Assembly: GCA_018812715.1 (NCBI GenBank)
Contig: JAHJCT010000024.1
Location: forward strand, 7,015-71,014
DNA from: Candidatus Micrarchaeota archaeon
GTDB lineage: Archaea > Micrarchaeota > Micrarchaeia > Anstonellales > Bilamarchaeaceae
Reading direction: 5' to 3'
Length of the DNA: 64,000 nt
In this document: positions 3,820 through 48,208 of the stretch, piece after piece
Layout of the letters: every line of letters begins with the position of its first letter
Position numbering within the stretch: position 1 is the stretch's first letter
The notes under the pieces: generated by a model
Databases searched by the model: none
Seen by the model: the letters and a program-made list of their open reading frames with translations, nothing else
What the model was told of the DNA's origin: nothing
Position numbers and translations under genes: made by a program

Positions 3820-3917
3820 GTATAATTAATGGATAAAAAGGTTTATAAAAACTACTATTTTCCATCAAAAGTAAACTTTTATTAACAATCAGTACGTTAT
3901 TGCACTAAAAATAAATA

Positions 3918-3934
3918 AAAGCCGGGTAAGGGCG
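3918..3934 (+). repeat. Copy of the direct-repeat motif aaagccgggtaagggcg. The other copies are at 2503-2518 and 17181-17197.
   Basis: A 15-nt exact match with 17181-17195, and a 14/15 match with aaagcctggtaaggg at 2503-2517. All three are intergenic and in the same orientation. Confidence 0.5.
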
Positions 3935-4064
3935 TCATTCACTTAGCACAAATCCCCGCATTTTCATACAACATCATGCATGTATATGCAATATGTTGCA
4001 TAACTAGTATTTAACTATTTCGTGCCGACAAAAGGGGTATTTACACAAATCAAACAGGGATCAT

Positions 4065-5081: not shown

Positions 5082-5097
5082 AAACATTACAAAAATA

Positions 5098-5814
5098 TCA
5101 GGAGACGATTATACCTCCTTTTTCCCTTATCGCTTGATAAATTTTTATAAGGTCTCCAGCCGTAACAGATTTACAGTTAGTTGCTATCCTTCCATCTTTT
5201 GAGATGCTAATTGAGATATGTTCTCCATCATCTGTTTTCATTTCAATTGCAAGTGCAGTGGTATTTTTTGGATCGTAGGTAGGCGCTTGATGGACATTCA
5301 CACCAAATTCAGCTCGAACTTTAACTTCCCCTTCATTTACATCAGCCCACGATCCCCAGACATTGATGCAATCAATAGCTTGATAAATTTTTTCTAAATC
5401 GAAAGAGATTCTATTCATCTTGACTAGTTTTGTTTCTTCTAGCCTCTTGTTGAATTGTTTAGATATTTCTTTTGTTGCAGCGCAAATCAAAACTTGATCT
5501 TTATCATTTTTTATCGCCCAAAAGCGATAGACCTTTTGGTAGCCCCCCTCATGATATTTTGCAAATTCTTCTCCTTCGGGGCAAAATCTGATAGTTTCCT
5601 TGATAGTATCACTATAGTGAATGATATCAAAGGAGGCACCATCCTGAGTTTTTTTTACAAGCTTAATTTTCGTTACTGGAGTCCCAAGTTTATCTCCCAA
5701 TCCATATTCAGATGCTAGATCTTGTTGAAGAGGAAGAACCACTTCCCCACGTTTTTCTATAATTGATTCTAAATCAAATTTTTCTATAGCGAAAATTGAA
5801 ATTGCAATTCCCAT
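5098..5814 (-). CDS. Hypothetical protein of 238 aa. Second gene of a two-gene cassette.
   Basis: ORF on the minus strand, 4 nt downstream of the 5819-6490 ORF on the same strand. No motif recognised. Confidence 0.5.
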   Translation of the reverse strand: MGIAISIFAIEKFDLESIIEKRGEVVLPLQQDLASEYGLGDKLGTPVTKIKLVKKTQDGASFDIIHYSDTIKETIRFCPEGEEFAKYHEGGYQKVYRFWAIKNDKDQVLICAATKEISKQFNKRLEETKLVKMNRISFDLEKIYQAIDCINVWGSWADVNEGEVKVRAEFGVNVHQAPTYDPKNTTALAIEMKTDDGEHISISISKDGRIATNCKSVTAGDLIKIYQAIREKGGIIVS

Positions 5815-5818
5815 AAGC

Positions 5819-6490
5819 TCACCAAATTTTTAATAACACCCCTAGCTGCTCTCTCATTTCGGAAAAATTAATTGCTGATAGGGCAGTTTCAGTTTTAGAA
5901 AATCGTATTGAAGATGCATTATCCTTAGATTGAACGATTTGGAGTCTGTCTAAGGTATATCCGGAAAATTTCGGATGATATAGTTCGCACCAATACTTCG
6001 GCAAAAAGAGATTGATGTTAATGGAAGTAAGAGACACATTTGCAATTGACATAAGTCTTTCAGACTTAGAAGCTAGTTTGTTGAAGTCCATTATAACTGA
6101 GGATATACCAGTATTAATTTCGGTTGTTTCAAAATGGACATGGTCATCCCCAAGATAATGGAAGAGATAATTTATGGACCCGTCTTGAATTTCAATCTTA
6201 TTTTTTGCTATAATATTTTTTCTAAACTTTGTTCCGAATTCTTTCGAGAAAAATGTGACCATCTTGTTCTGAAAAGAGGGAAAATCCATTGATAGATTAT
6301 AGTCAATGATTACTCGCATTCTTATAGGGGCGTTTGATAATTTTGCAACTGCTTTCCTAAATTTATTGACGATTTTTAAATTGTGTTCAACTATTATAGG
6401 GATAACTATGGAAGCTGTCCATATGAGAACATCAATTCCATTTTTCAGAAGCACATCTTCTGAAGGTAATTCCATAAAATATTGATACAC
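5819..6490 (-). CDS. Hypothetical protein of 223 aa. First gene of the two-gene cassette.
   Basis: ORF. It forms a tight operon with 5098-5814. Confidence 0.5.
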   Translation of the reverse strand: MYQYFMELPSEDVLLKNGIDVLIWTASIVIPIIVEHNLKIVNKFRKAVAKLSNAPIRMRVIIDYNLSMDFPSFQNKMVTFFSKEFGTKFRKNIIAKNKIEIQDGSINYLFHYLGDDHVHFETTEINTGISSVIMDFNKLASKSERLMSIANVSLTSININLFLPKYWCELYHPKFSGYTLDRLQIVQSKDNASSIRFSKTETALSAINFSEMREQLGVLLKIW

Positions 6491-6601
6491 AGAATATTTG
6501 TTATTTCTATCATTTATTGTAACTAGGATACAACATGTTGCACAAATGAATAAATCGTGTTGAAACCATCAACTTATCATGTTAGGATTTGAGGTGATAA
6601 G

Positions 6602-6907
6602 TTGGTATTCAAACGTCTGATTCTGCTTCTCCTGGCGGGAAGCCTGGCCTTTGCTGAGTTCAGCATCCCTGCTGATCAGCCCATATGCAACCTATACGGG
6701 ATGCTCAAGACATTTGGGACTGTCGTAGGCGTCCTTGTAGCTGCCTATGCTGGCTTCATGATAGCGAGCGTTACGGACCTGAAGGAGCGCAATGATGCCA
6801 AGGCCCTTCTGGGAGGTGTGGCAGTCGGTCTGATAGTGATCTGGATAGCTCCTTTGGTTATAACAAACCTCGTAGGAGCAGATAGCGTCTGCGGGTGGAC
6901 TTCCTGA
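6602..6907 (+). CDS. Small secreted or membrane protein with VirB2/TrbC-pilin-like topology (signal peptide plus two TM helices).
   Basis: Signal-peptide-like MVFKRLILLLLAGSLAFA, then two TM segments separated by a charged loop (DLKERNDAKA), with Cys near both ends. GC is much higher than in the flanking DNA. Confidence 0.45.
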   Translation: MVFKRLILLLLAGSLAFAEFSIPADQPICNLYGMLKTFGTVVGVLVAAYAGFMIASVTDLKERNDAKALLGGVAVGLIVIWIAPLVITNLVGADSVCGWTS

Positions 6908-7128
6908 TTGACCTTATTGGCATTTCTTCTGCCATAAAGTCGATAGCTATCTTTTTCTCAGTCATTATCCTAAGCTATGCAGGGATTGTCCTCATAACTA
7001 GCAAAGACCCGGTCTCAAGAAACGAATGGAAAGAAATTGCCAAGGGGGTCTTAATCGGCATTTCCGTCCTATTTCTTGGCCCAGTCATCTCTTCAGCACT
7101 TACAGGAGGTGGATATTGTGGTCCTTAG
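6895..7128 (+). CDS. Small two-TM hairpin membrane protein (VirB2/VirB3-like?). It starts at a GTG that overlaps the previous gene's stop.
   Basis: 77-aa ORF with two hydrophobic helices. It overlaps the upstream ORF by 13 nt, consistent with operon arrangement. Confidence 0.4.
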   Translation: MDFLIDLIGISSAIKSIAIFFSVIILSYAGIVLITSKDPVSRNEWKEIAKGVLIGISVLFLGPVISSALTGGGYCGP

Positions 7129-7942
7129 GCAGTTGGTCCTCTTTTTTGCCCTTGTTTCCATATCCGCAGCCTATCAATACCATGACTATGTGAAGGAAGG
7201 CAACTATCACGGTCCGGCATTGGTAAACGATTCCCTTCTAGACGACTGCCGTTTCCTTGAAGTGCCAGAAGTCATATGCAATACTACTGAAAGCGGAAAC
7301 CTGACGAAAGAGCAGGGGCGGCAGTTGATTCTCGATACATTGAATCCATCGATATCCGGCCTAGAATATAGGTTTTTCGAGCAACTGGATACGAAAGTCA
7401 AGAGCTCCCTGATGTTCAGAGTCATTGAGTTTGAGCCATATTCCAAAGACGAGCTGAAATCCCTTCTTCAGGTGGTCGCAAAAAGGACCCTGCTGGAAGA
7501 TTCCTGCGATAGCGAGGTATTGGGCAAAGTTGCCGAGCTCGGGGCATCCAATGAAGGAAACGCTCGATTCGCCATTTGGCTGCTTTTTTCCGCTGCCAAA
7601 GATGCCGAGGAGAGGAATTCCGAAAAGATAGAACTAGATGATGTTGTTAAGGCATACGAAAGGCTTGTCCCAATAAGAGCGCAAAACCAGAATGAAACCG
7701 GACTTTGCGAGGAGGAGCTGCTAATCCTGGATCTTCTGAAAGAAGGGGAGAAAGAATCATCCGAGATTTACGAGATAGTTCAGAAGAGGATAAATCGGTC
7801 AAAACGCCAGATTCGTAATTATCTCAGTTCTTTGGCCCAGAAGGGCCATATTAAGGGCCAGGAATTCGAGGGTACAAATTCAATGCTTAAACCAAAAGTG
7901 TATCGAGTTTGCCAGAGGAGATTGAATGAGGTTTACGATTAA
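7076..7942 (+). pseudogene. Orc1/Cdc6 C-terminal fragment (sensor, lid and winged-helix region). The Walker A and Walker B motifs are missing. A GTG at 7118 preceded by GGAGGTGG is a plausible start.
   Basis: EQLDTKVKSSLMFRVIEFEPYSKDELKSLL aligns with KLDTRIRSSLRFSEMEFKHYSEEELISIL of the intact Orc1 at 47043-48092. KRQIRNYLSSLAQKGHIKGQEFEG..LKPKVYRV aligns with KRQIRNYLDLLEKKGIIESEKFEADGILRPKVFRL of the same protein. No GxxGxGKT motif is present. Confidence 0.6.
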
Positions 7943-8170
7943 GAGAAATGTACGGACTTTCATTCGAAATTATGGCATGAGGTTGGAGGCCGGACTTATC
8001 GGAGAGCTTGAGAGTATGATTGAAAAAAAGCTATCTCGGGCCATTGAAAGGGCAAAGAGAAATGGCCGGACGACCATAAAAAATCATGATATATAAAAAT
8101 CTCATTATAATAAACCACTTAAATTTATTCTGGTTTTATTTAAAGGACGCTGATCTCAATCGTGATGGTA

Positions 8171-9700
8171 ATGGCTAAAGACAACGGAGCTAATTTAGGG
8201 TTTGAACAGAAACTCTGGCAGGCAGCAGACAAGATGAGAAACAATATGGACGCTGCCGAATACAAGCATGTAGTCCTTGGCTTGATTTTCCTCAAATATA
8301 TTTCTGATGCTTTTGAAGAGAAGCACAAGAAGCTTCTGGCAGAGAAAGCACAAGGAGCAGATCCCGAAGACCCTGATGAGTACAGGGCTGAAAATATCTT
8401 CTGGGTTCCCAAAGAAGCAAGATGGCATTATCTACAAGATAACGCAAAACAACCAACAGTTGGCAAGCTAATTGATGATGCCATGGATGCAATAGAGCGG
8501 GATAATCCCTCTCTAAAGGTTGTTTTGCCCAAGAATTACGCCCGCCCCGCCCTTGATAAACAACGATTAGGAGAACTAATCGATTTGATAGGAACAATCG
8601 GCTTGGGCGATTCGGAAAACCGCTCAAAGGATATTCTGGGCCGGGTATACGAGTATTTCCTCGGCCAGTTCGCCGATGCTGAAGGAAAGAAAGGAGGCCA
8701 ATTCTATACTCCGAGAAGCATTGTCAAGCTTCTTGTAGAAATGCTTGAACCATATAAAGGAAGGATCTATGACCCCTGCTGCGGCTCAGGCGGCATGTTT
8801 GTTCAGAGTGAAAAATTCATAGAAGCCCATGGTGGAAAACTTGGGGACATTTCCATATATGGGCAAGAGTCCAACCAGACCACCTGGAGATTATGCAAAA
8901 TGAATCTGGCGATCAGAGGCATTGACGCAAATATCCAATGGGGAGATAGTTTTCACAATGACCTTCAGAAGGATCTGAAGGCGGATTTCATCATAGCAAA
9001 TCCTCCGTTCAATGTCAGCGACTGGAAAGGAGAGCTTTTGAGGGATGATGTAAGGTGGAAATACGGGGTTCCACCGTCTGGAAACGCCAACTTCGCATGG
9101 GTCCAGCATTTCGTTCATCATCTATCACCAACAGGAATAGCCGGATTCGTATTGGCTAACGGTTCCATGTCCTCTAATACCTCTGGGGAAGGGGAAATTC
9201 GGAAGAGCCTGATTGAAGCAGATGTAGTGGACTGCATGGTCGCTTTGCCAGGTCAGCTTTTCTATAACACGATGATTCCGGCCTGCCTTTGGTTTACGGC
9301 AAGGGACAAGAAAAACCATAAGTTCAGGGACCGGAGGGGCGAAGTGCTATTCATAGATGCACGAAACATGGGCGTCATGGTCGACCGAAGACATAAGGAG
9401 CTCACAGATGAAGACGTCCAGAAGATCGCTTCAACTTATCATGCCTGGAGAGGCGAAGGGGGCAAGTATGAGGATGTCAAAGGCTTCTGCAAGTCGGCCA
9501 AGCTTGATGAAATAAGGAAGCATGGCTATATCTTGACTCCTGGACGCTATGTCGGTGCTGAGGAAGCAGAAGAGGATACGGAACCTTTCGATGAGAAAAT
9601 GAAGCGGCTGACGGGCGAGCTTTCGGAGCAGTTCAGTAAGTCTAAGGAACTTGAAGATGAAATAAGAAAGAATTTAGACGGGTTAGGGTGGAGAGTGTAA
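8171..9700 (+). CDS. hsdM: Type I restriction-modification N6-adenine DNA methyltransferase subunit (HsdM).
   Basis: NPPF motif in [16 protein letters not shown]-terminal HsdM_N-like segment [34 protein letters not shown]. The ORF is drawn from 8162 but the likely start is MAKDNG at 8171. Confidence 0.9.
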
Positions 9701-9703
9701 AGG

Positions 9704-10618
9704 ATGGAATTAGTGCCTAGGGGGTTATTTAATGAGAGAAAAGGTACTGCACAATCAGGAAAGGATTATTTTACCCGAGATATCAGAACTAAAATCTTAA
9801 TGTTGTTTGATGATTTTGATCTAAACCACTTAGACACTTCTTCTGTTGTAGTAGTAGGCGGAAGTTATCGGAATTCCTGTTTAAGGCTAATGAAATCTAA
9901 GTTAAAATATTTGGTAGACCTGGGACATATTGATAAGTTTGAGGAATTTTTCTTAAGTTGTACTCTTAATGAGCTTCTCTCATGTGTCGAGTTGTATACT
10001 AAATGTATGGAGGAAATAATATCGAGGTATGAACAACATGAACGAACCAAACTATATAGTCGAGGTTATGATACTAGTCAACTCCTAGTAACTTTTGTTA
10101 AATCATTCAATAATTTATTGGCTTACCATAAAATCCCATATCACTTTGTTTACAATGATGTATTAGATAAACTGTTTATTGAAAAACAGTTTAATGAAGT
10201 GGAAGAAGAGGTCAAAGAGAAAATTTACGAAATAATCAAAAATGAGCCCAAGATTAATGAATATTTTACGCAATCTTTAGGGGATTATGCCAAAAGGGAA
10301 TATAAAGTTTCTATAGAAAATGCGTACTTAACTCTAGAAAAATATCTTAAAGTTAAAACCAAAAATCACAACTTGGATGCTGTAAGAAATTTTGTAGAAT
10401 TTCAAAAGAAATACTCATTCAATGAAAAAGGAATATTCTCTGTTAGGCCCGATATAATCAAAAACAAGATTTCGCTAATTTACTCTATTAGAAGCGAACT
10501 AAAATCCCATTCCGATAGGGAAACTTTTGATACTAATAAATTTTTGGAAGAGACAGCTAAGTTCCAATTAAACGAAGTTATGAATTGTATACTTATATTA
10601 GAGGACTTGAGTAAATGA
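9704..10618 (+). CDS. Hypothetical 304-aa protein embedded between hsdM and hsdS. Markedly AT-rich.
   Basis: Its ATG lies 3 nt after the hsdM stop. Its stop overlaps the hsdS ATG as ATGA. GC is about 30-33% against about 47% for hsdM and hsdR. No Walker A or other motif seen. Confidence 0.6.
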   Translation: MELVPRGLFNERKGTAQSGKDYFTRDIRTKILMLFDDFDLNHLDTSSVVVVGGSYRNSCLRLMKSKLKYLVDLGHIDKFEEFFLSCTLNELLSCVELYTKCMEEIISRYEQHERTKLYSRGYDTSQLLVTFVKSFNNLLAYHKIPYHFVYNDVLDKLFIEKQFNEVEEEVKEKIYEIIKNEPKINEYFTQSLGDYAKREYKVSIENAYLTLEKYLKVKTKNHNLDAVRNFVEFQKKYSFNEKGIFSVRPDIIKNKISLIYSIRSELKSHSDRETFDTNKFLEETAKFQLNEVMNCILILEDLSK

Positions 10619-11940
10619 AGAACACACATCTAAAAGAAACCGAAATCGGAGAAATCCCTGAAGAGTGGCAATTGAAAAGGGTAGATGAGATTGCAGTCAT
10701 AAACGAAGCTGCTGTAGGTAAAAAATATCAATGTGAAGAAATTGAGTATATAGATATAGATTCTGTAGAAGAAGGCCAAATAAAAACTGTTAAAAAAATG
10801 AAATTGGCAGAAGCACCGAGCAGAGCAAAACGAATTGTTAAGAAAAACGACATTTTGATCTCCACAGTAAGGCCCAATCTGAAGCATTATGCCTTTATCT
10901 CAGCAGCAAAACCAAATACGGTAGCTTCCACTGGATTTGCAGTAATATCCGCAAAAGGCATAGACCCGAGGTTTCTCTATTATTGTTTAACTACGCAGAA
11001 ATATACGAATTACCTTTCTGCGATTGCAGATGCGCATACCTCAACATACCCTTCATTTAACCCAGATATTATAGAGAATTCAAATATTCCTTATCCGCCC
11101 ATTCCAGAACAACATATCATCGCCAAAATCCTTTCCGATTTGGACGCCAAAATCGAACTAAACCGCCAAATGAACCAAACCTTGGAACAAATCGGTGAGG
11201 CCCTTTTCAAGCGCTGGTTCGTTGATTTCGAATTCCCTAATGAGGAAGGCAAGCCGTACAAATCAAGCGGCGGGGAGATGGTGGATTCGGAGCTGGGGGA
11301 GATACCAAAGGGGTGGAATGCGAGTAAATTGGGGGAACACGTATCTATGGTTAGGGGTTGTTCTTATTCTAGTGCAGGATTAAAGGATTCGGAAAATGCT
11401 TTAGTTACGTTGAAATCAATTGAACGTGGAGGCGGATTCAAGACTGAGGGATTCAAGCCCTATATTGGTGAGTTTAAGGATAAGCATATTGTAAAAAACG
11501 GTGAAATAATTGTAGCACACACTGATTTAACACAAAATGCCGAAGTTCTTGGTAAGCCTGCGATAGTTCGGGAAGTACCTTATTTCAATAAATTAATCGC
11601 ATCCATGGATTTAGGGATTATTAGGCCAACTGACGATAGGGCATCTAATCCATTTTTGTACTATCTTTTGAAGTCTGATCAATTCCAAAATCATGCCTAT
11701 GGGTATGCGAGTGGAACAACAGTATTGCATCTAAGCAGTAAAGCCATTCCTGATTTTCAATTTATTTTGGCGAGAAAAGAAGTAATCACCCGTTTTACTC
11801 AAATCGTAGAAAAGTTAACTATGAAAATTCAGTACAACTTTTCAGAAGCAGAAAATCTTGAAAAGATTCGAGATACCCTCCTCCCAAAGCTCATGTCCGG
11901 ACAGATAAGGGTAAAAATCCCCAAAGAGAGTGCTAACTGA
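10615..11940 (+). CDS. hsdS: Type I R-M specificity subunit (HsdS) with two target-recognition domains.
   Basis: Conserved central region [23 protein letters not shown] and C-terminal region [12 protein letters not shown]. Two variable TRD-like halves. Its end overlaps the hsdR start (ATG at 11940). Confidence 0.85.
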
Positions 11941-14900
11941 TGGATCACGCTATAACCGAATCAGAAACCGAAGAACTTGCCCTTCAGACACTCGCAAAGC
12001 TGGGCTACAAGGTGATTTTTGGTCCGAATATAGCTCCAGACGGCCCAAACCCAGAAAGGGGTTCATATTCCGATGTTGTGCTTGTCGAAAGGCTCAAGGC
12101 AGCAGTTCAGAAGATAAACCCGACCATTCCAGCCGAAGTCCGGGAAGAGGCGATAAAGAAGGTCCTCAGGACAGAAAGCCCGAAGCTCATAGTCAATAAC
12201 CACAATTTCCACAAAATGCTTGTTGAGGGCGTAAACGTAGAATACCGTCAAAAAGGCGCCATCAGAGGAGACAAGGTCTGGCTTTTTGATTACAAGAGGC
12301 CGGAAAACAACGAATTTCTTGCAGTCAACCAGTTTACAGTCATAGAAAACAACAACAACCGCAGGCCAGACATCGTTTTATTCGTGAACGGGCTTCCTTT
12401 GGTAGTAATCGAACTGAAAAATCCTGCTGACGAAAACGCAACCATAAGAACTGCCTTTAACCAGTTTCAGACATACAAGGTCCAGATCCCATCATTGTTC
12501 AGTTATAACGCATTTCTGATTATCAGCGATGGCTTTGACGCCCGGGCAGGAACGATTACCTCCGAATGGGAACGCTTCATGCCCTGGAAAACGATTGAGG
12601 GCAAAGCCAAGGCCCCTATCACCTCTCCATTGATGGAGGTTCTTATCCTTGGAATGTTCAACAAACCATTTTTCCTAGATCTTATCCGCCATTTCATCGT
12701 ATTCGAAAAGGAACACCACAAATATTCTAAGAAACTCGCTGCATACCATCAATACCATGCAGTAAATCGGGCCATTGGATCAACCCGAGGCGCTCTCAAA
12801 GGGGATAAACGGTGCGGCATTGTATGGCATACCCAAGGCTCAGGAAAGAGCCTTACTATGGCCTTCTACACTGGGAAGCTCATCCTTGCCCTGGATAACC
12901 CCACAATAGTCGTCCTTACTGACCGTAATGATCTTGACGACCAGCTTTTCCAGACTTACAGCAGATGCCAGGAGTTGCTCAGGCAGAAGCCAGTCCAGGC
13001 CGAATCAAGAAAAAGCCTTAAAACCCTGCTTAAAGTTGCATCTGGCGGCGTTGTCTTTACTACAATCCAGAAATTCTTCCCTGAAGGCAAAGGAGACAAA
13101 TTCCCGCTTCTATCTGAACGGCGCAATATCGTTGTAATCGCAGACGAGGCCCATAGGAGCCAGTATGACTTTATCGATGGTTTTGCCAAGCATATGAGGG
13201 ACGCTCTTCCGAATGCTTCTTTCATAGGATTTACCGGAACCCCGATTGAAAAGGCGGATAGAAGCACTCCGGCGGTTTTTGGGAACTGTATTGACATTTA
13301 CGATATAGAACAGGCAGTTACAGATGGCAACACAGTCAGGATTTTCTACGAAAGCAGGCTCGCAAAGCTTGAACTCAAGGAAACTGAAAGGCCAAAAATA
13401 GATCCTGAGTTTGAGGAAATTACCGAAGGGGAAGAGGTCTCCCATAAGGAACGGTTGAAAAGCAAATGGGCCAGGCTTGAAGCCGTCGTTGGAAGTGAAA
13501 AGAGAATAAAACGCATAGCAAAGGATATTGTTACTCATTTTGAGAAACGGCAGGAAATCCTCGAAGGAAAAGGAATCATAGTGGCTATGAGCCGTAGAAT
13601 TTGTATTGACCTTTATAAGGAAATTAGAAAGCTGAGGCCGGAATGGTGCCACAAAGACGATGAAAATGGCAGTCTAAAGGTAATCATGACTGGCTCGGCA
13701 ACCGATCCGGTGAGTTGGCAAGAGCACATTAGGAATACTACCAGGAGACGTGCTCTGGGCGACCGTTTCAAGAATCCTGAAGATCCAATAAAGCTTGTCA
13801 TTGTAAGGGACATGTGGCTTACTGGCTTTGATGTGCCAAGCCTTCATACGATGTACCTTGACAAACCTATGCGGGGACATGGGCTGATGCAGGCAATAGC
13901 CAGAGTAAACCGTGTATTCAGGGACAAGCCCGGTGGGCTGATTGTTGATTACATAGGAGTTGCTGACGACCTTCGAAAGGCGTTGTCTGAATATACTGAA
14001 AGCGGAGGAAAAGGAAAACCTGTCTTTGATCAGGAAGAAGCAGTTGCGGCGATGCTGGAGAAATACGAAATAGTAACTTCAATGCTCCATGGCTTCGAAT
14101 ACCAGCGCTTTTTCAAGGCAGGAACAAGCCAAAAGATGTCAATTATCCTTGAAGCAGAAGAATTTGTATCAATGCAACCTGAAGGCAAAGAGCGCTTCAT
14201 AAAAAACGTTTCCCTTCTTTCCAAGGCCTTTGCACTGGCCGCTCCTCATGAAGAAGCACTCAAGTTAAGGGATGACCTTGCATTTTTCCAAGCCGTTAAA
14301 GCAAGGCTTTCTAAATTCAGGGAAATGGCTGGTAAGCCAGAGGAAGAACTTGACACCGCAATACGGCAGATTGTATCAAAAGCCATAGTGTCCGATAAAG
14401 TCGTTGATATCTTCCAGGCGGCAGGGCTAAGAAAACCTGATATTTCAATACTTTCAGATGAGTTTTTAGCCGAAGTCAAAGGGATGAGACATAAAAACCT
14501 AGCCTTTGAACTGCTGAAAAAGTTGCTAAATGACGAACTTAACTCCAGAAGCAGGAAAAATCTTATCCAATCCCGTTCATTTGCAGCTTTGCTGGAAAAG
14601 ACCATCAAGAAATATCAAACCAGGGCTATCGATTCAGCAGAAATCATTGAGGAGTTAATAGACCTTGCCAAGGATATACGGGAAGCCGATAAACGGGGGG
14701 AAGAATTAGGGCTTTCTTCTGATGAAATTGCGTTTTATGATGCGCTTGAAGTCAATGATAGCGCAGTAAAGGTTCTTGGCGATGAAACGCTTAGAACGAT
14801 TGCCCGCGAACTTGTGAAAATGGTCAAAGCTAACGCAAGCATAGACTGGACTTTGAGGGAGAATGTCAAGGCCGCTATGCGGGTTGCCGTAAAACGCATA

Positions 14901-15002
14901 CTTAGGAAATATGGTTATCCCCCTGATAAGCAGGAGTCAGCGACTCAGACAGTCATTAAACAGGCTGAACTTCTTGCGGACAGCTGGACCGTTGGAGCAT
15001 AA
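11940..15002 (+). CDS. hsdR: Type I restriction enzyme R subunit (HsdR). SF2 helicase plus nuclease.
   Basis: Walker [17 protein letters not shown] box [10 protein letters not shown] and helicase C-terminal motifs. 1020 aa. Confidence 0.9.
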
Positions 15003-15018
15003 ATTGCCGTATTTGATG

Positions 15019-15053
15019 CCGTAATTTACTGGCGATTTTACCTAAAATTACGG
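15019..15053. terminator. Candidate bidirectional terminator hairpin between the convergent hsdR and VirB4-fragment genes.
   Basis: Inverted repeat CCGTAATTT(N17)AAATTACGG followed by an A/T-rich run. Confidence 0.3.
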
Positions 15054-15132
15054 TCAAAAATTTGGCCGTAAATTTCTCAAGAATTGAGGAATTATGCCCC
15101 AATTCGCTTATTTTTGCATTATTAGCGATTCA

Positions 15133-15957
15133 TTATTTTGTGCTGAGCTGGGAGATGATGCCTGGGAGCTCGTTTCTGGTAATGGTTTTTCCGAATTTTT
15201 CGTAGTTTCGTTTTTCCCTCCAGCCAGTTACTACTATGTAGAAATCTGAGTACTGGGCCCTTACTGCATCAAACTTGGCTATATGGGCCTCATTGGAATA
15301 GCCCCTGAAATTTTCCCCAGTTTCCACTTCAAAAGCGATTTTTTCCTTTTTGATTGAAACAACGATATCTCCCGGCTGGGTGGTCTTCATATCAACTGTT
15401 TTGAAACGCTCCTTCAGCATATAGTAAATCATCCAACAAAAGAAGGCATGTCTCGGGCTCTCCCTATTCCTCCTTTTCACCAAATGCCAGGCAGAACCTC
15501 CAAACTGTCCTAAACGGTCCTTATGGAGAGCATAGCCATTCTCTACCAAGTACGTTATCTCCTCTTCAGTCAGGCCGTCTTTCTGGTAAATCCCCTTCTT
15601 CAAGTCAATCTTTGGCACAGACTTTTTTTCAACCGGATTCTGAGGCCTTGGCGTCTCCTTTGGATGGGTCGTTATTATCTCATGAAGTTTCTCGGAGGAC
15701 TTGACAAAGAACTTGTGGGAATCGTGCTCAGTAATGACCAAGCCAAAGCCACTCGGAGCTGTAAGAAGATAGTTTTTGGCCGGATCATTGAGCTTGAGGG
15801 TATTAGAAATCAGGTCTATATTCGTGGGATTCTGCCTCATCAATATCTTAACCGAGGCAGTATTGAGGATGGAACGTCCCGCCTTGCTTCTTAGCAAATC
15901 CTCAATCTCCTGGGTGATAAAGCCTATCGAGGCATTGAACTTCCTTGAGGTCTTCAC
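15133..15957 (-). pseudogene. 5'-truncated VirB4/TrbE-like conjugative ATPase C-terminal fragment fused to a C-terminal domain of unknown, possibly nuclease-like, function.
   Basis: ASIGFITQEIEDLLRSKAGRSILNTASVKILMRQN...NTLKLND...GFGLVITEHDSHKFF matches the VirB4/TrbE C-terminal pattern (ATQS..D......TKI.L.N...LGLN....GL......F). The frame stays open upstream to about 16093 with no ATG, and it overlaps the integrase 3' end. The track start is a GTG. Confidence 0.5.
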
Positions 15958-16028
15958 AAAATCAAGGATATATCCGGCGGCCTCTCCGTTTACAAGGGCA
16001 TGGTCCCGGCTAACGTCAAAGGAGGGGG

Positions 16029-17069
16029 TCAGGAGATTTCTGAAATCGTCATCCGATATGTCCTCTTCCTCGGGCCATAGACGTCAAGGATGGCATTATC
16101 GACGTCCCTTCCGCTGAGGTGGACATAGACGCTGGCCATATCCGAGCCCTGAACCCAGCCGAAATACTCCTTCATCTGGGCCTCGGTAAGCTTGTTGGCC
16201 AGGGCGGTGGCCCTGGAATGGCGGAAAAGGTGTGGTGTGATCTTCTTCTTGATGCCCGCTTTTACGGCTACGTCGCAGATAATCCGTTTGGTAACCGAAT
16301 AATGGAGCGGAAGCGTGTCCATCGCCTTACGGTCCAGGTATCTTGACCAGAGATAGGCCTCAGGGTCATCCTTGTAGGGGTGGAAATCCATCCAGAGGGC
16401 AAGGGCCGGGGCAGAAGCGACTAGCCTTATCCTCCGGTCCCCAGTCTTGCCAGTAACCCTTATTATGGCCCCAAAATCGTCGAATTCGACGTTTTTTAGC
16501 TGGATTGTGAGCAATTCCATTATCCTGCATCCGCTCTCATAGAGGACCTGAATCATAGCCTTATCCCGGGGCTTGGTGGCAGCATCGGCCATCCGCTTTA
16601 TCTCATCCTCGGAGATAAGCTCTTCGGGAAGCTTGACCAGGCGCTCCTTGACATGGCACTTAATCCAGCGGACTTCATCTGGATAATCCTCGTCGTTGCC
16701 CTTGAACCATTTGAAGAACCTCTTGATGAGAATCTTCCGGTCAGCCTTGGTCCAGGCCTTCAAATCGCTAGTCTCGACCTTTCCCACGAGCTCCAGAAGG
16801 TCCTTCTTCGTAACCTTGGCAAATGGTTTTCCGAAATTACGGGAGAACCAGCTCAGATTACCGAGGTATTTGAGCCTCCTCAGCCTTCCCAGCCCGATAG
16901 AGGCAATATAGGAGTCGAACTCCAGAATCAGCTTCTTATTCGCTGGAATGACGCTTTTATCATTCCGCAATGACTCCAGCCGGGTCTCTAGCCTTCGGGC
17001 CGTATTCTTCAAATCACACTTCACATCCATCACCTTCGTTTCCAGTCTTTTTACCGTTTTATGCAACAT
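16029..17069 (-). CDS. int: Tyrosine recombinase/integrase, XerC/XerA-like. Intact.
   Basis: C-terminal catalytic region HLFRHSRATALANKL...YVHLSGRDV, consistent with an R..H..R..Y catalytic tetrad. 346 aa. It sits next to a tRNA gene. Confidence 0.8.
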   Translation of the reverse strand: MLHKTVKRLETKVMDVKCDLKNTARRLETRLESLRNDKSVIPANKKLILEFDSYIASIGLGRLRRLKYLGNLSWFSRNFGKPFAKVTKKDLLELVGKVETSDLKAWTKADRKILIKRFFKWFKGNDEDYPDEVRWIKCHVKERLVKLPEELISEDEIKRMADAATKPRDKAMIQVLYESGCRIMELLTIQLKNVEFDDFGAIIRVTGKTGDRRIRLVASAPALALWMDFHPYKDDPEAYLWSRYLDRKAMDTLPLHYSVTKRIICDVAVKAGIKKKITPHLFRHSRATALANKLTEAQMKEYFGWVQGSDMASVYVHLSGRDVDNAILDVYGPRKRTYRMTISEIS

Positions 17070-17533
17070 ATTGCACGAAAGGCGAGGATGCGATCCGCCA
17101 AAACGGCGTATCGGCCCAGGAACCCGCAGCCTGTTATAAAAAGCGGCGGCGTGTTGCCTAGGGAGTTGCGTTAAAAGAATAAAGCCGGGTAAGGGAGTTG
17201 TTCAAACTTCTGATCGATGTGCCTTTTGATCAAACTTTTGGCATTTGTTTACACAGGTCAAAAGTTTGTTGAACCCCTCTATGCCGCTTTCTACCCCCAG
17301 TTTTTGGGGCGCCTTTCCCGATTGAAACAAAGTTTCAATGGGCACCTTGAACGCAAAGCGTTCAATTGTGTTCCTAAAAAGGTGCACTGCAGGCGGCCGC
17401 ATAGCCGATCTGCCAACCCGGCTTGTGTGTAATTAAAGAAAGTTGCATTTTTAAATGATATCAGGCAAAGTCTCATAACATTTCTGAACTTGTTTCAGGA
17501 AAATAAACCAACCTTAGAATGACATAAGGAAAT

Positions 17534-17647
17534 GGGCCCGTAGCTCAGCTTGGTAGAGCGTCGGACTTTTAATCCGCAGGTCGAGGGTTCGAATCCAAGC
17601 TTTTGAAAAAGCTTGATCAAAACTTGGCGTTTATCCCTCCGGGCCCG
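17534..17647 (+). tRNA. tRNA-Lys(TTT) interrupted by a 40-nt intron in the T-arm, at about 17595-17634. The exons fold into a perfect cloverleaf.
   Basis: Exon 1 reads GGGCCCG-TA-GCTC-AGCTTGGTA-GAGC-G-TCGGA-CTTTTAA-TCCGC-AGGTC-GAGGG-TTCGAAT. After the 40-nt insert, exon 2 reads CCCTC-CGGGCCC-G. The acceptor stem and T-stem are perfectly complementary only across the insert. Confidence 0.8.
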
Positions 17648-17803
17648 ATCTTCTTTTCTTTTGAAACTTGTTTCAATCTAAGACCCCACCTTATTATGAA
17701 ATATAAACTTTTGTCAGCATATTTGTTGGTAATGAAGTTTTTGGCATTTGGTAGTGGAAACGGAGCCGGCCAAAGAAAAAAGCCATTCAAAAATAAGACA
17801 ATT

Positions 17804-18667
17804 ATGCGACCAGATGGTGTTGAGGTTTCTTATAGATACAGAAGACCAGAAACAAATAATCCGAATATTGCTTTTCAAGGAGGATGGACGACCCACCCAG
17901 CCGTTTATCTTGCACAAATTAGAGATTTAGCATCACAATATGGAGTCCTTACTATGGAAAATAGAGGGCATTGGCATAGTCGTCTTGGAAACAGCACTCC
18001 AAACACTTATATCGATGATCTTGTTGAGGATTTCAAAGCGATTCTAGACGCAGAAAAAATTGAAAAAATAGTAATAACCGGACATTCTATGTGGGGTGCA
18101 GCAGCAATGCACTTTTATCATAAATATCCAGAAAGAGTTTTAGGATTGGTGCTAGTTGCTCCAGCATATACAGACCCACGAAAACTTGGATTTATGAAAA
18201 ACTATGATTTTTTACATCCGATCAGTGAGAAACTTGCTTCTCTTGCAGGCCATGCAACTGGATTTGATTTTGTTAAGAGACATGTGCTTTCTAGAACTCC
18301 ATTGGCTTGGCATGCATTGAGATTTGTTCTTCTAGTTACATTCCTAAAGGAAGCTAAAAATCAAGAAGACGTAGAAAAAATGATCAAAAACGTTTACAGA
18401 GCAGATATAAAGGCAATGAGTATGTCAATGCAAGCACTTTTTCTAATGAATGGTAATCTTCGTGAAAAAGCTAGAGAAATAGAAGTTCCAGTATTAATCA
18501 TAGGGGGAAAACAAGATTCGTTAATACATCCAGAAAGCTTAGAGGAACTAGCGGATTATGTTCCGAACGCCAAACTTGAGATATGGAATGAAGTTGCGCA
18601 TTTCCCTATGCTAACTTATCCTGCGAGATTTACACATCGCGTAGTGCAATTTCTTGAGGACATTTAG
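17804..18667 (+). CDS. Alpha/beta-hydrolase fold protein. The track start at 17603 overlaps the tRNA. Likely starts are 17804 or 17696.
   Basis: Nucleophile-elbow-like ITGHSMWGAAA, then HG-type context LVLVAPAY. Typical abhydrolase length. Confidence 0.6.
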   Translation: MRPDGVEVSYRYRRPETNNPNIAFQGGWTTHPAVYLAQIRDLASQYGVLTMENRGHWHSRLGNSTPNTYIDDLVEDFKAILDAEKIEKIVITGHSMWGAAAMHFYHKYPERVLGLVLVAPAYTDPRKLGFMKNYDFLHPISEKLASLAGHATGFDFVKRHVLSRTPLAWHALRFVLLVTFLKEAKNQEDVEKMIKNVYRADIKAMSMSMQALFLMNGNLREKAREIEVPVLIIGGKQDSLIHPESLEELADYVPNAKLEIWNEVAHFPMLTYPARFTHRVVQFLEDI

Positions 18668-20055
18668 TATTTTTCTAGATAATTTTCAATTTCCCAAGGA
18701 GTTACTTGCAATCTATATGAATCCCATTCTTTTGTTTTGGCTTCGATATATTTGGTATAAGTGTGCTCGCCTAATGCCTCTTGAATTAATCTATCGTCTT
18801 TCAATGCTTTCAATGCCTGCCAAAGCGAATGTGGTAGCGTATCAATATTTTTTTCTTGAAGTTTCTTGTCATCAAAATCATAAAGATTTTCTTCGATTGG
18901 CTCAGGCGGCTCAAAATTATTCTTAATGCCGTCCAAACCTGCTTTCAGCATTACTGCAAATGTTAAATACAAATTACAACTAGGATCAGGACAGCGAAGT
19001 TCGCATCTCGTTGATTGGCTTTTTCCTGCCGAATAACGCGGTATTCGTATCAATGCAGAACGATTAATCCTCGCCCAGCTAAGATAAACGGGTGCTTCAT
19101 AACCAGGAACAAGTCTTTTGTAAGAATTTACTGTTGGGGAAAGGATAGCAGACATTCCTTTTGCATGCTTTAATTGTCCTGCAATGAAACTGTATGCTGT
19201 TTTTGAAAGTTTATATTTATCAGAATCATCAAAAAATGCATTCTTTCCATTTTTGAATAAACTTTGATGCACATGCATACCTGAACCGTTTATGCCAGAG
19301 ATTGGCTTTGGCATAAATGTAGCATGCAATCCGTGTTTTTGTGCAATTGCCTTTAGTACAAATCTCATGGTTGTTCCATTATCAGCAGTGGTCAATGCAT
19401 CTGCATAGCGAAAATCTATTTCATGCTGGCCTAATGCCACCTCATGATGGCTGGCTTCGACATTGATATTAAATTTCTGAAGGGTAGTATTCATATCTCT
19501 CCGTATATCATAAGCTTGGTCTGTTGTTAAATCAAAATAGCTTCCTTTATCATGAGGAAGAGGAAGCAATTTGCCATTGTCTTTTCTAAAAAGAAAAAAT
19601 TCTAATTCAGGACCGACATTGTATTCAAAACCCATTTCTTTAGCATCTGCAAGAGTACGTTTGAGAATCTGGCGCGGATCTCCTTCAAAAGGTGATCCAT
19701 CTGGTCTATGTACATCACAGATAAATCTTGCTGTATTTCCATCATGTGAATTATGCCAAGGAAGAACTGCATATGTATTTACATCTGGTTTAAGGTACAT
19801 ATCGCTTTCATGAATGCGTGCAAAGCCATCTATTGAAGAACCGTCAAACCATGTACCATGTTTAACAGAGTCTTCAAGATGTTTGACTGGTATAGTAATT
19901 GATTTCACCATTCCAAAAAGATCAGTGAATTGTAAATTCACAAACTGCACATTGTCCTGTTCTATTTGTTCGAAAATTTCCATAATCTCGCCTCTCAAAT
20001 GTTTGAAATTTTGATAGAATTCCATTCTTTTTATTGTTTTCTTTGTAATTTCCAA
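18664..20055 (-). CDS. glnA: Glutamine synthetase type I.
   Basis: 463 aa. GS N-terminal beta-grasp and catalytic domain features, including the conserved NGSGMHVHQSLF region. Confidence 0.85.
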   Translation of the reverse strand: MEITKKTIKRMEFYQNFKHLRGEIMEIFEQIEQDNVQFVNLQFTDLFGMVKSITIPVKHLEDSVKHGTWFDGSSIDGFARIHESDMYLKPDVNTYAVLPWHNSHDGNTARFICDVHRPDGSPFEGDPRQILKRTLADAKEMGFEYNVGPELEFFLFRKDNGKLLPLPHDKGSYFDLTTDQAYDIRRDMNTTLQKFNINVEASHHEVALGQHEIDFRYADALTTADNGTTMRFVLKAIAQKHGLHATFMPKPISGINGSGMHVHQSLFKNGKNAFFDDSDKYKLSKTAYSFIAGQLKHAKGMSAILSPTVNSYKRLVPGYEAPVYLSWARINRSALIRIPRYSAGKSQSTRCELRCPDPSCNLYLTFAVMLKAGLDGIKNNFEPPEPIEENLYDFDDKKLQEKNIDTLPHSLWQALKALKDDRLIQEALGEHTYTKYIEAKTKEWDSYRLQVTPWEIENYLEKY

Positions 20056-48092: not shown

Positions 48093-48137
48093 GTGATAGT
48101 ATAGCAGGAAAGATTTAAATGTGCGCGGAAATAGCTT

Positions 48138-48151: not shown

Positions 48152-48208
48152 CAAATTGGGAATTTTTGAGAAAGAAGAAATAAAATGCTTGTTGTTCTAG
48201 ACTAATCG

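Follow-up and report, generated by a model that had tools for sequence, protein, structure and literature searches.

The presence of a GC-rich segment holding an integrase, fragments of a T4SS and a Type I restriction-modification (R-M) operon in a Micrarchaeota genome raises the question as to whether these genes are the remains of a single mobile element, where its ends lie and what it may still do. We addressed this in a 64,000-nucleotide stretch of DNA (the window) and in related integrase loci, and our analysis makes it very likely that a decayed integrative element lies here, one that carried a T4SS and was of the conjugative type, from a family found in Micrarchaeota and other DPANN archaea. 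As a genomic island it is of an ordinary kind; what is unusual is the host, a tiny symbiotic archaeon.

Composition of the island

The sequence-only reading of this DNA had claimed a GC anomaly from about 6590 to 17200, and both GC content and tetranucleotide z-scores bear this out. In 1-kb windows the host has a mean GC of 0.360 (sd 0.028, max 0.447) as against 0.44-0.52 in the island, and 46% of the island windows (6590-17183) lie above the host maximum. GC steps up from 0.32-0.37 to 0.45-0.48 across 6250-6750 and down to about 0.39-0.35 across 17250-18250, and instead of a uniform signature over 6-18 kb we see these steps together with a tetranucleotide distance from the host of z = 5-11.5. 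The plateau is uneven, with a dip to 0.29-0.31 at 9750-10750 that corresponds to ORF X and the start of hsdS of the R-M operon, and the high GC of 17183-17422 comes from a host tRNA gene and is no part of the element. On the left, 6590 marks a border in composition only.

Integration site and extent of the integrated DNA

That host gene is a previously unannotated tRNA-Cys(GCA) with two introns (17422-17183, minus strand), which appears to be the integration target. Its exons (17422-17387, 17288-17267 and 17195-17183) are separated by a 98 nt intron at position 37/38 (17386-17289) and a 71 nt intron in the T-arm at 60/61 (17266-17196). Unspliced, the gene is missed by ARAGORN and by Rfam at the gathering threshold; spliced in silico it is called as tRNA-Cys by ARAGORN in the window and in L002, L003, L004 and L043, and removal of the T-arm intron alone gives a tRNA-Cys call with a canonical intron. 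The five copies have near-identical exons and introns that differ in length and sequence; the discriminator is U73 and the fold z-score is -4.4. The gene lies between the integrase and a tRNA-Lys gene, on the strand opposite to the latter and 113 nt upstream of the integrase.

The proximal att core (17181-17195, plus strand) consists of the tRNA-Cys 3' exon, the discriminator and the start of the T-run and forms the right-hand junction of the island. Because the tRNA has two introns the att core is its 13-nt 3' exon, and the core common to all three copies in the window is short (13-15 nt). The best non-self match of the tRNA-Cys region within the window is AAAGCCGGGTAAGGG at 3918-3932 (plus strand), an intergenic copy identical to 17181-17195 at 15/15 positions, which probably marks where the unit with the integrase ends on the far side. 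Next in rank among the non-self hits of the whole window, GCCTGGTAAGGGA at 2503-2518 (plus strand) reproduces the tRNA-Cys 3' end in reverse complement and has 0 mismatches to the att pattern; it matches 17175-17196 at 20/22 positions, is adjoined on the element side by an intron-less tRNA-like T-arm remnant and has an orthologous counterpart in L002. The three motifs found, all on one strand, compare with 0.12 expected by chance in the window. Between the start of the integrase and the att core, the arm of the element (17070-17180) aligns with its equivalent in L043, which comes from an independent metagenome and has an identical tRNA-Cys junction. A similar geometry runs through the family, with a same-strand tRNA 50-190 nt upstream of the integrase in at least 10 of 60 related loci, and in L101 the 3' end of a tRNA-Leu recurs as an exact 18-nt repeat that bounds the locus.

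The sequence-only reading had placed a single element within the GC shift, integrated beside tRNA-Lys. The GC borders are genuine and a tRNA-Lys(UUU) gene does lie some 330 nt to the right, starting at 17534, where a 38-nt intron in its T-arm causes ARAGORN to miss it and Rfam to score it at only 34 bits. However, no part of tRNA-Lys is repeated at the left border, it faces away from the element with the complete tRNA-Cys gene in between, the repeated 3' end is that of tRNA-Cys, and in the family the tRNA sits just upstream of the integrase on the same strand. As the repeat analysis already contradicts it we consider an element bounded by the GC shift and integrated beside tRNA-Lys highly improbable: this tRNA is a neighbour only, and the repeats place the att sites at tRNA-Cys, 3918-3932 and 2503-2518 and not at 6590 and 17200.

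Since the tRNA-Cys 3' exon is repeated at these two distal positions the integrated DNA most likely spans about 2519-17180 and would consist of two units, one of 13.2 kb with the integrase and one of 1.4 kb with Fic. The same repeats place a Fic gene and three ORFs of host-like GC (0.356) inside the integrated DNA, the ORFs falling within the integrase unit. These ORFs (4065-5081 on the plus strand, 5098-5814 and 5819-6490 on the minus strand) lie beyond the GC anomaly with a tetranucleotide z of only 1.8-2.3, had no match in Pfam, PADLOC, NCBIfam or PHROGs that would assign a function and have no homologue among 80 related integrase loci. They may have arrived together with the element, or they could predate it, with a nearer att copy by ~6500 that has since decayed. 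No empty site was recovered among the closest syntenic genomes, which are Micrarchaeota MAGs (GS 77-84% aa identity) and likewise have short inserts, bounded by repeats, at this tRNA-Cys (0.74 kb in L002 and 2.6 kb in L003). The assignment of the host to this phylum agrees with an identical protein annotated as Candidatus Micrarchaeota. Synteny with these genomes extends rightward from the GS gene and is lost on its left side, and as the left host flank is not conserved the outer limit is not provable.

Remnants of transfer and replication genes

Every backbone fragment of the window maps gene by gene, at 36-65% aa identity, onto the near-intact relative L040, which contains HFX_2341_N, an MTase and then, in full order, two pilins, TrbL_3 (847 aa), a TraC-like gene, VirB4 (306 + 471 aa), an Rce1-like gene, a 56-aa gene, Cdc6, a Type II R-M system and an integrase. 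L040 thereby shows the island genes to be what is left of an integrative element of Micrarchaeota that had a T4SS operon, an Orc1/Cdc6 of its own and R-M cargo. A second relative, L041, is itself decayed and retains an integrase fragment, the VirB4 C-half, the small gene and Cdc6.

The two small membrane proteins at the left of the island are VirB2/TrbC-like as had been proposed. Pilin 1 (6602-6907, plus strand) matches Pfam TrbC/VirB2 with an E of 1.5e-5, under the gathering score, and shares 65% identity with the first pilin in the T4SS operon of L040, while pilin 2 (6895-7128, plus strand) scores 31.8 bits for Pfam T4SS_pilin against a gathering score of 26.6, is 56% identical to L040 pilin 2 and also matches a mycoplasma ICE pilin model. 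The next ORF (7076-7942, plus strand) is an in-frame chimera of a TrbL/VirB6-like N-terminus (~80 residues) and the C-half of Orc1/Cdc6. In tblastn, in the frame of the ORF, 7172-7342 aligns with residues 23-79 of L040 TrbL_3 (49% identity) and 7370-7909 with residues 179-369 of L040 Cdc6 (38% identity), the two segments being 28 nt apart in a single reading frame. The Cdc6 part is a C-terminal fragment with Cdc6_lid (Pfam, E 1e-12) and wHTH only, the AAA+ core being absent, and is 43% identical to the resident Cdc6 at 47043-48278. A small conserved gene of 56 aa (7926-8096, plus strand) comes next, as it follows Cdc6 in related elements; it is 36-41% identical to the Cdc6-adjacent 56/59-aa genes of L040 and L041, and this Cdc6-linked gene also lies beside the integrase or Cdc6 in L051, L053 and L064.

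The VirB4 gene abutting the integrase is truncated at its 5' end (15133-15996, minus strand), leaving the post-Walker B segment and a family-specific PD-(D/E)xK-like C-terminal domain of ~190 aa. The ORF (15133-15957) matches four VirB4 models (NCBIfam) over their final ~80-100 positions only, its residues 1-85 corresponding to model positions 653-734/752, 670-720/800, 787-889/894 and 661-723/792. It is 41-44% identical to the C-halves of L040 and L041 VirB4, in alignments that begin right after Walker B, and the homology reaches upstream beyond the GTG at 15957, beginning at 15996. Profile searches for VirB4, VirB2/TrbC and the integrase uphold these earlier calls, and the remaining gene calls hold as well. 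No relaxase or VirD4-type coupling protein was seen in the window or in the Pfam assignments of L040, so that the term conjugative is applied by analogy. The ancestral gene order is uncertain since pilin and TrbL are inverted relative to VirB4, whether through inversion or as two copies, and related elements show several orders (L040 versus L059 and L073).

Integrase

The integrase (16029-17069, minus strand; Pfam Phage_integrase, E 1.3e-18) had been called an intact tyrosine integrase. This holds for the catalytic domain, which is complete with the residues R, K, HxxR, W and Y all kept, but not for the 3' end. The protein is 70% identical to its closest relative, that of L043, over residues 1-323 of 397, and its alignment with relatives ends at residue ~323-335 and gives way to 11 unrelated residues, while 68 of 80 relatives, L043 (397 aa) included, continue for ~60-70 aa more, which include a Zn ribbon. 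We therefore regard the gene as 3'-truncated; no remnant of the Zn-ribbon tail occurs in any frame. One deletion would have taken the tail and truncated VirB4, the junction between the two remnants lying at about 16064-15996. Some family integrases, e.g. that of L087, may naturally be without the long tail, and its loss therefore need not abolish activity. The best plasmid matches are haloarchaeal integrases (35-42% identity). At least 213 related integrases occur in metagenomes, and Cdc6, the small gene, T4SS genes (L059, L073) and Type I R-M systems (L120, L058) recur close to them.

Defence cargo

The complete hsdM-X-hsdS-hsdR operon reported earlier is confirmed, with full domain sets in hsdM (8162-9700; Pfam N6_Mtase, E 8.5e-115, and HsdM_N), hsdS (10615-11940; Pfam Methylase_S, E 2e-22) and hsdR (11940-15002; Pfam HSDR_N, SWI2_SNF2/ResIII, T1R_D3-like and T1RH-like_C), which encode the methyltransferase, specificity and restriction subunits. 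All four genes are on the plus strand. The operon sits between two backbone genes, the small Cdc6-adjacent gene and VirB4, and thus occupies a cargo position, yet it is itself mosaic. Homologues of hsdM at 79-86% identity occur in many archaeal and bacterial phyla (Methanoperedens, Nanoarchaeota, Woesearchaeota, Thermoplasmata, Brocadiia and Syntrophorhabdaceae), which suggests a promiscuous cross-domain family. ORF X (9704-10618; 304 aa, GC 0.31) had no family or PDB match, including in Pfam, PADLOC, NCBIfam and PHROGs. It has about 23 homologues, and the 3/3 contexts examined are all within Type I R-M operons, adjoining hsdS or one gene upstream. It shares 74% aa and 76% nt identity with its copy in L123 whereas the flanking hsd genes share merely 24-33%, and it appears to be an uncharacterised accessory gene that moves between such operons as a separate cassette, independently of the hsd genes beside it.

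The sole gene of the 1.4-kb unit between the two distal att copies (2596-3819, minus strand) encodes a 407 aa Fic/DOC protein with an N-terminal wHTH (Pfam Fic, E 1.6e-14; PADLOC SoFic / PDC-S04, E down to 1e-29). L040 likewise has a Fic gene adjoining its integrase, with 24-39-nt direct repeats on both sides.

Alternative origins of the locus

That the element explains the arrival of the R-M system, as had been proposed, is plausible but unproven: with hsdM so widespread and X moving independently, the cassette could have entered the element before or after integration. It is quite possible, if not our preferred view, that the operon inserted by itself into a resident or already decayed element, as the identity of hsdM across distant archaea and bacteria marks a very mobile cassette, X has itself travelled between operons, and no integrase or T4SS gene lies within 8 kb of the related hsdM-X-hsdS-hsdR operon of L123. 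The operon nevertheless lies exactly at the convergent junction of the small gene and the VirB4 end, a typical cargo slot that holds a different accessory gene in L040 and nothing in L041; Type I R-M systems also occur at the related integrase loci L120 and L058, and hsdM and hsdR have a GC of 0.46, like the backbone and unlike the host.

A less likely alternative is that the locus is a patchwork of several independent insertions at a tRNA-Cys hotspot, in which the pilin and TrbL N-terminal block and the block from the Cdc6 C-half through VirB4 to the integrase would derive from two element copies, and the host-like-GC ORFs and Fic from other events. The three att copies, the small repeat-bounded inserts at the same tRNA in L002 and L003, the heterogeneous composition and the orientation of the pilin block, opposite to VirB4 where intact operons are co-oriented, would all fit this, but the pilin and Cdc6 blocks are fused in one frame with no att copy between them, the integrase is present once only, and all backbone fragments match L040 at comparable identity. 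Much less probable is that the VirB2/VirB6/VirB4-like genes were a DNA-import (Ced/Ted-like) or cell-cell contact apparatus on an integrative element. The module is minimal (two pilins, VirB6-like, TraC-like and VirB4), relaxase and VirD4 are not recognisable in L040, and Ced and Ted are made from the same parts (PMC12102498); against this, an integrase, a dedicated Orc1/Cdc6 and att repeats accompany the module, an association shared with archaeal ICEs and conjugative plasmids (PMC6563490), and the best plasmid matches of VirB4 are overwhelmingly on conjugative plasmids of monoderm bacteria.

Proposed history and comparison with known elements

For a single decayed element we propose that the tyrosine integrase inserted it into the 3' exon of the two-intron tRNA-Cys(GCA) gene, which would have rebuilt the tRNA beside the integrase and left displaced 3'-end copies at 3918-3932 and 2503-2518. 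The site would have been used at least twice, because the second distal copy bounds the small Fic unit. On the simplest path relative to L040, an inversion that broke the TrbL/VirB6 gene and orc1/cdc6 would have created the TrbL-N::Cdc6-C chimera, and a deletion from within virB4 to the int 3' end, presumably in that order, would have cost the element the ATPase core of VirB4 and the AAA+ half of Cdc6, along with the TraC-like gene, the greater part of TrbL and the tail of the integrase. The VirB4, TrbL and Cdc6 fragments set against L040, beside the complete R-M operon, agree with the earlier proposal that the element lost most of its transfer genes and kept its Type I R-M system. A mating pore and self-started replication would no longer be possible, mobility is presumably lost and excision is doubtful. 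The cargo, namely a complete and presumably active R-M operon with its inserted X and the neighbouring Fic gene, still looks functional, and the locus today would be a fixed defence island that mainly gives the host a restriction-modification system.

Archaeal ICEs decayed into cryptic integrated elements (CIEs) are an already known kind, to which this island belongs. In Thaumarchaeota CIEs were proposed to be derived from ICEs that lost their conjugation apparatus, Type I R-M subunits rank with the commonest cargo and some elements use Orc1/Cdc6 as replication protein (Krupovic et al. 2019, PMC6563490). In described features the island resembles these in its tyrosine (XerC/D-like) integrase, direct repeats, VirB4 and VirB6-like genes and pilins; it differs in its Micrarchaeota/DPANN host, in the extra PD-(D/E)xK-like domain of VirB4 and the intron-bearing tRNA-Cys target, and no VirD4/TraG partner, TFIIB or ParB was seen here. 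Sequence matches of the VirB4 fragment to the models CD1110 (Clostridioides) and Mbov_0397 (mycoplasma ICE) suggest a likeness to the MPF-FATA class of T4SS, its best plasmid matches being in Actinobacteria and Firmicutes at a low 25-30% identity, but unlike such systems and archaeal conjugative plasmids (e.g. Sulfolobus pNOB8-type) the window holds fragments only. As in classical tRNA-targeting islands with a P4-like integrase, the tRNA, about 110 nt and int follow on the same strand, the repeat is the tRNA 3' end, accretion at one tRNA is in tandem and the cargo is defensive, although here the tRNA has two introns and the integrase is of an archaeal family with a C-terminal Zn ribbon. By layout, the gene being contiguous after integration with att outside it, the integrase resembles the pNOB8-type (type II) and not the SSV-type (type I) integrases.

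Genomic setting and composition

The window derives from a DPANN archaeon with a GC content of about 36%, and SRR2540949 contains an identical contig of 3 kb. For the glutamine synthetase (GS) gene at 18664-20055 the nearest genomic relatives are in Micrarchaeota metagenome-assembled genomes (77-84% amino acid identity), and from 18664 to ~31300 gene order is kept in three of these (L002, L003 and L004); to the left of 18664 no conservation with the three was found. Between 6250 and 6750 the GC content goes up from 0.32-0.37 to 0.45-0.48, and by ~18000 it is back at 0.35-0.39. Host 1-kb windows have a mean GC of 0.360 (sd 0.028, maximum 0.447), and 46% of the windows in 6590-17183 lie above the host maximum. 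As the tetranucleotide distance to the host also reaches z = 5-11.5, the compositional anomaly first read from the sequence alone held up on both measures. The plateau is interrupted by a dip to 0.29-0.31 at 9750-10750, which covers a 304-aa ORF between hsdM and hsdS (X, 9704-10618, plus strand) and the first part of hsdS.

A two-intron tRNA-Cys gene as the attachment site

Between the integrase gene (16029-17069, minus strand) and a nearby tRNA-Lys gene lie 360 nt that align well with intergenic DNA of the three syntenic genomes and of L043, the locus carrying the closest integrase. The conserved block opens on the plus strand with AAAGCCGGGTAAGGGAG, of which the window has three copies, all on the plus strand (2506, 3921 and 17184), against 0.12 expected; L002 and L003 have two copies each. 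An Rfam search of the block (17183-17422) gave no match at E up to 10. An unknown plus-strand non-coding RNA, with RNase P and SRP RNA considered, was rejected given the empty Rfam result and because the minus strand reads as a tRNA-Cys with two introns (17422-17183). This strand contains a 7-bp acceptor stem (GCCGGGU/ACCCGGC), a D-arm, an anticodon arm with CUGCAG that is split at 37/38, a T-arm that is split after the T-loop, and a U discriminator (U73) followed by a T-run. When both inserts were removed ARAGORN called tRNA-Cys(GCA) in five out of five genomes, and when the T-arm insert alone was removed it called tRNA-Cys with a canonical intron. Across the five genomes the exons are invariant or nearly so, and the introns (40-98 nt and 34-93 nt) are divergent in sequence. 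MFE folds of the precursors showed no clear bulge-helix-bulge (BHB) motifs at the intron boundaries, and a repeated CC allows the T-arm junction to be placed only to within 1-2 nt. As such a target is missed by both ARAGORN and Rfam, island borders and tRNA complements in genomes of this kind will be systematically mis-called.

Reverse-complemented, the repeated motif corresponds to the 13-nt 3' exon of tRNA-Cys together with the beginning of the terminator. When the tRNA-Cys region was searched against the complete window with short words, its top two matches apart from itself were 3918-3932 (15/15) and 2497-2518 (20/22), so that target-derived direct repeats are present as an exact 15-nt pair (3918-3932 and 17181-17195) and one further, imperfect copy. 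The tRNA-Cys 3' end is followed after 113 nt by the integrase gene on the same strand, which is the classical arrangement; the same junction and a homologous arm are found in L043, which comes from a different metagenome, and in at least 10 of 60 related loci the integrase is preceded, at a distance of 50-190 nt and in the same orientation, by a tRNA gene (Asp, Thr, Leu or Val) that ARAGORN detects. The integrase gene is contiguous, with the att core 113 nt upstream of its start, and the integrase is thus not of the SSV type (type I). With the tRNA-Cys 3' end repeated and the geometry typical of this integrase family, the tRNA-Lys gene, beside which the sequence-only reading had placed the element, is merely a divergent neighbour. 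The att repeats came to light only through comparison with relatives, a generic repeat scan of 5500-18800 having given no convincing att pair. One candidate pair, 6535-6551 and 17062-17078 (14/17), was rejected since it is at chance level (an estimated ~0.1 expected) and overlaps the integrase start codon. A clean att reference for the integrase family would be provided by a compact 5.2-kb element at the related locus L101 (1455-6717), which comprises a tRNA-Leu, an integrase and a gene for a protein with a VirB4-C-terminal-like domain, and which is bordered on both sides by an exact 18-nt repeat of the tRNA-Leu 3' end.

The neighbouring tRNA-Lys(UUU) gene (17534-17648, plus strand) is itself interrupted behind the T-loop by an intron of 38 nt (about 17597-17634) and was missed by ARAGORN, with Rfam giving just 34 bits. 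Its counterparts in L003 and L004 (~16263-16395, minus strand) instead have a D-loop insert of ~56 nt containing a common TTTTGAAAAAGCTT, and that of L002 (17506-17579, minus strand) is uninterrupted, so that intron position varies among close species. In the divergent tRNA-Cys and tRNA-Lys genes the T-arm is interrupted at one and the same position, 60/61, and the two introns have in common a 16-nt RNA motif, AAAAG(U/C)UUGAUCAAAA (17224-17239 and 17607-17622; 15/16 identity). Motif and position together suggest that one intron family may have spread between tRNA genes.

Extent of the element

The right junction of the element lies at 17180/17181. Its left border had been drawn at 6590, and this most likely has to be moved outwards, as the nearest distal core at 3918-3932 gives an integrase unit of 13.2 kb. 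Three ORFs at 4065-6490 within this unit have a host-like GC of 0.356 and weak tetranucleotide deviation; they matched no family in any library searched and had no homologues in related elements, and they may have come in with the element or may predate it. A scan of genome contigs gave no empty site, the relatives there being at most 84% identical in GS with non-syntenic left flanks.

A further 1.4 kb (2519-3917), with the second core as its outer bound, contains only a Fic/DOC gene (2596-3819, minus strand), whose wHTH-Fic product has a PADLOC SoFic/PDC-S04 match. In L040, a related locus with a near-intact element, a Fic gene also lies beside the integrase, bracketed by direct repeats of 24-39 nt for which no match to a recognisable tRNA was found. 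In both, Fic is a repeat-bracketed mini-unit at the same attachment site as the integrase element. Fic/DOC genes recur beside integrases of the family, in the window, in L040 (18724-19665) and in the related locus L056 (~11331-12101). Short repeat-bounded inserts at the same tRNA-Cys in related genomes mark this gene as a hotspot.

Remnants of a probable conjugation apparatus

Pfam and NCBIfam bore out all of the earlier gene calls, that is the pilins, the Cdc6 fragment, the hsd genes, the VirB4 fragment and the tyrosine recombinase. The small membrane proteins are one TrbC/VirB2-like protein and one T4SS_pilin, and the Cdc6 ORF retains the lid and winged helix only. A 274-aa ORF (15133-15957) is identical to the NCBI-annotated 'hypothetical protein KKB44_04090 [Candidatus Micrarchaeota archaeon]'; with its first ~85 residues it matches four VirB4 models, and these only at their far C-terminal end. 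Homologues of this VirB4 fragment led to L040. There an HFX_2341_N regulator and an MTase are followed by a pair of pilins and by TrbL_3/VirB6-like (847 aa), TraC-like and VirB4 (306 + 471 aa) proteins; an Rce1-like gene, a 56-aa gene and Orc1/Cdc6 come next on the other strand, and after them a Type II R-M pair, hypothetical genes and an integrase. Its T4SS and integrase genes are likewise GC-rich against their surroundings.

Of these L040 genes the window has counterparts of pilin 1 (6659-6898, 65% identity), pilin 2 (6907-7122, 56%), TrbL residues 23-79 only (7172-7342, 49%), Cdc6 residues 179-369 only (7370-7909, 38%), the 56-aa gene (7926-8093, 36%), residues 154-464 of the VirB4 C-half (15996-15145, 41%) and the integrase (16991-16074, 53%). 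The TrbL and Cdc6 pieces are both in frame with the ORF at 7076-7942, which is therefore a chimera, and the VirB4 piece aligns with its relatives only from a point directly behind Walker B, so no ATPase is possible. The mating-pair-formation system is thus incomplete, being reduced to the post-Walker-B end of VirB4, ~80 TrbL/VirB6 residues and two pilins. No relaxase, oriT or VirD4-type coupling protein was found among the Pfam and NCBIfam matches of the window ORFs, nor a relaxase or VirD4-type protein among the precomputed Pfam matches of the L040 genes; archaeal conjugative elements are generally without recognisable relaxases. With a full T4SS set in L040 and fragments only in the window, the window copy is a remnant, i.e. 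a cryptic integrated element. Another relative, L041, has decayed independently and retains an integrase fragment, the VirB4 C-half, a small gene and Cdc6.

If the original order resembled that of L040, two events would reproduce the gene order and orientations of the window as well as the in-frame chimera and a clipped integrase: an inversion that broke TrbL at codon ~79 and Cdc6 at codon ~179, and then a deletion from mid-virB4 to the integrase tail. In two other related loci (L059 and L073) the integrase lies upstream of the T4SS operon and is co-oriented with it, an order different from that of L040 which leaves the ancestral order uncertain, and the window arrangement may alternatively represent a fusion of two element copies. 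The VirB4 remnant begins ~30-70 nt beyond the integrase end, which points to one deletion having clipped both genes.

The VirB4 proteins of this element family have an extra C-terminal domain of ~150-190 aa, in the window at 15133-15700 (minus strand), with the motifs ES.EHAFFC ... PD(V/I) ... F(E/D)VETG ... K. It is PD-(D/E)xK-like in appearance and is without a Pfam family. It is found, too, outside VirB4, in separate proteins of ~280 aa with unrelated N-termini that directly adjoin related integrases (L082 11167-11997, L072 5080-5937 and L101 ~3757-4200), and this VirB4- and integrase-linked nuclease-like domain is a lead for conjugation biology.

The integrase

The integrase has a Phage_integrase domain (Pfam), and in alignment with its relatives the catalytic R, K, HxxR, W and Y are all kept. 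The alignment extends only to residue ~323-335 and is followed by 11 unrelated residues to the end, whereas 68 of 80 relatives reach at least position 385 of the 403-aa L040 integrase, and the closest, that of L043 (70% identical, 397 aa), has a CxxC...CxxC ribbon and a terminal helix. No trace of the family-typical C-terminal tail of ~60-70 aa was found in any frame of the window. The gene had been described as intact; it does encode a site-specific recombinase with every catalytic residue, but these C-terminal ~60-70 aa are gone. Metagenomes contain at least 213 related integrases, repeatedly accompanied by Cdc6, pilin/VirB6/VirB4 modules and R-M cargo.

A mosaic Type I R-M operon

The predicted Type I R-M system comprises hsdM, hsdS and hsdR in one operon with full domain sets and with gene lengths comparable to those of homologues (507/443/970 aa in L123, which has a related operon). 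Its neighbours are the small Cdc6-linked gene on one side and the virB4 3' end on the other, a position with the appearance of a cargo slot since L040 has an unrelated accessory gene there and L041 nothing. Type I R-M genes are also found near related integrases in L120 and L058. The operon itself is a mosaic. HsdM has thousands of homologues, the best 79-86% identical, with named sources including Methanoperedens, Nano- and Woesearchaeota, Thermoplasmata, Brocadiia and Syntrophorhabdaceae. X (GC 0.31) is 74% identical to its L123 copy at the amino acid and 76% at the nucleotide level, whereas hsdM, hsdS and hsdR of L123 are only 33, 24 and 28% identical to those of the window; X has thus moved by itself, as a cassette of one gene. 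It was within a Type I operon in each of the three other contexts examined, adjoining or one gene upstream of hsdS. The sequence-only reading held that the element explains how the R-M system arrived; the cargo-type position agrees with this, but with a mosaic operon and mobile hsdM and X the claim was overstated, and delivery by the element is reasonable but unproven.

The X family consists of ~23 proteins without annotation, and X had no match in sequence searches of Pfam, PADLOC, NCBIfam, PHROGs and PDB. An AlphaFold2 model had a mean pLDDT of 66 with a poor C-terminal half, and Foldseek against PDB returned noise only (best E 0.08). Its invariant RSx4HS motif resembles the HEPN motif (Rx4-6H), which we treat as a lead only. 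As a one-gene cassette that moves between Type I R-M operons, X is a small lead for defence biology.

Relation to known elements

Of the features of an ICE, a recombinase at one end and flanking target-derived repeats are present, and a complete mating-pair system and relaxase/VirD4 are absent. An integrase, att repeats and leftover conjugation genes with no functional transfer apparatus identify a cryptic integrated element derived from an ICE. The earlier interpretation as a decayed ICE was therefore right in kind, while wrong on the target tRNA and left border and too generous on integrase integrity and R-M origin. Cryptic elements have been proposed to arise from ICEs by loss of the transfer apparatus in Thaumarchaeota (PMC6563490), whose ICEs and cryptic integrated elements are the closest described, with XerC/D-like integrases, VirB4, VirB6, pilins, sometimes Orc1/Cdc6 and frequent Type I R-M cargo (PMC6563490). 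Both pilin 2 and the VirB4 fragment have matches among models derived from ICEs of monoderm bacteria, and the best plasmid matches of VirB4 are actinobacterial and firmicute conjugative plasmids (25-30% identity); by sequence the fragment would fit into the MPF-FATA class.

It is routine for a tRNA gene to harbour an island with defence cargo and decayed transfer genes; the main points of note here are the host lineage, the hidden tRNA target and the leads offered by X and the VirB4-linked nuclease-like domain. We found no description in the literature of T4SS-type integrative elements in Micrarchaeota or DPANN, and the window shows that genome-reduced DPANN archaea also carry them. A much broader reading, which we regard as improbable, would be that a large undescribed family of integrative elements inserting at tRNA genes lives in Micrarchaeota and other DPANN archaea, with a minimal T4SS (two VirB2-like pilins, VirB6-like, TraC-like and VirB4) and a VirB4-PD-(D/E)xK-like fusion, the domain also standing alone beside the integrase, that this domain supplies the missing DNA-processing ('relaxase-like') function of archaeal conjugation, and that the machinery moves DNA between episymbionts and hosts; on this reading the copy in the window would be the fossil of one such system.

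Other observations in the window

A full-length Orc1/Cdc6 gene lies 30 kb off at 47043-48278 (minus strand); its product is 52% identical to the Cdc6 of the L040 element and 43% to the Cdc6 fragment of the window element, the latter being 38% identical to L040. Contigs assigned by binning to Cloacimonadota, Patescibacteria, Saccharibacteria and Acidobacteria (L006-L009 and L011) contain GS homologues 69-72% identical to that of the window, a sign of either wrong binning of DPANN contigs or horizontal transfer. The gene at 21902-23395 (minus strand) encodes a protein of 497 aa in which Pfam recognises a RelA/SpoT domain of the alarmone synthetase type (E 1e-10); it is conserved in L003 and L004 (56-58% identity) and is unexpected for a genome-reduced archaeon.
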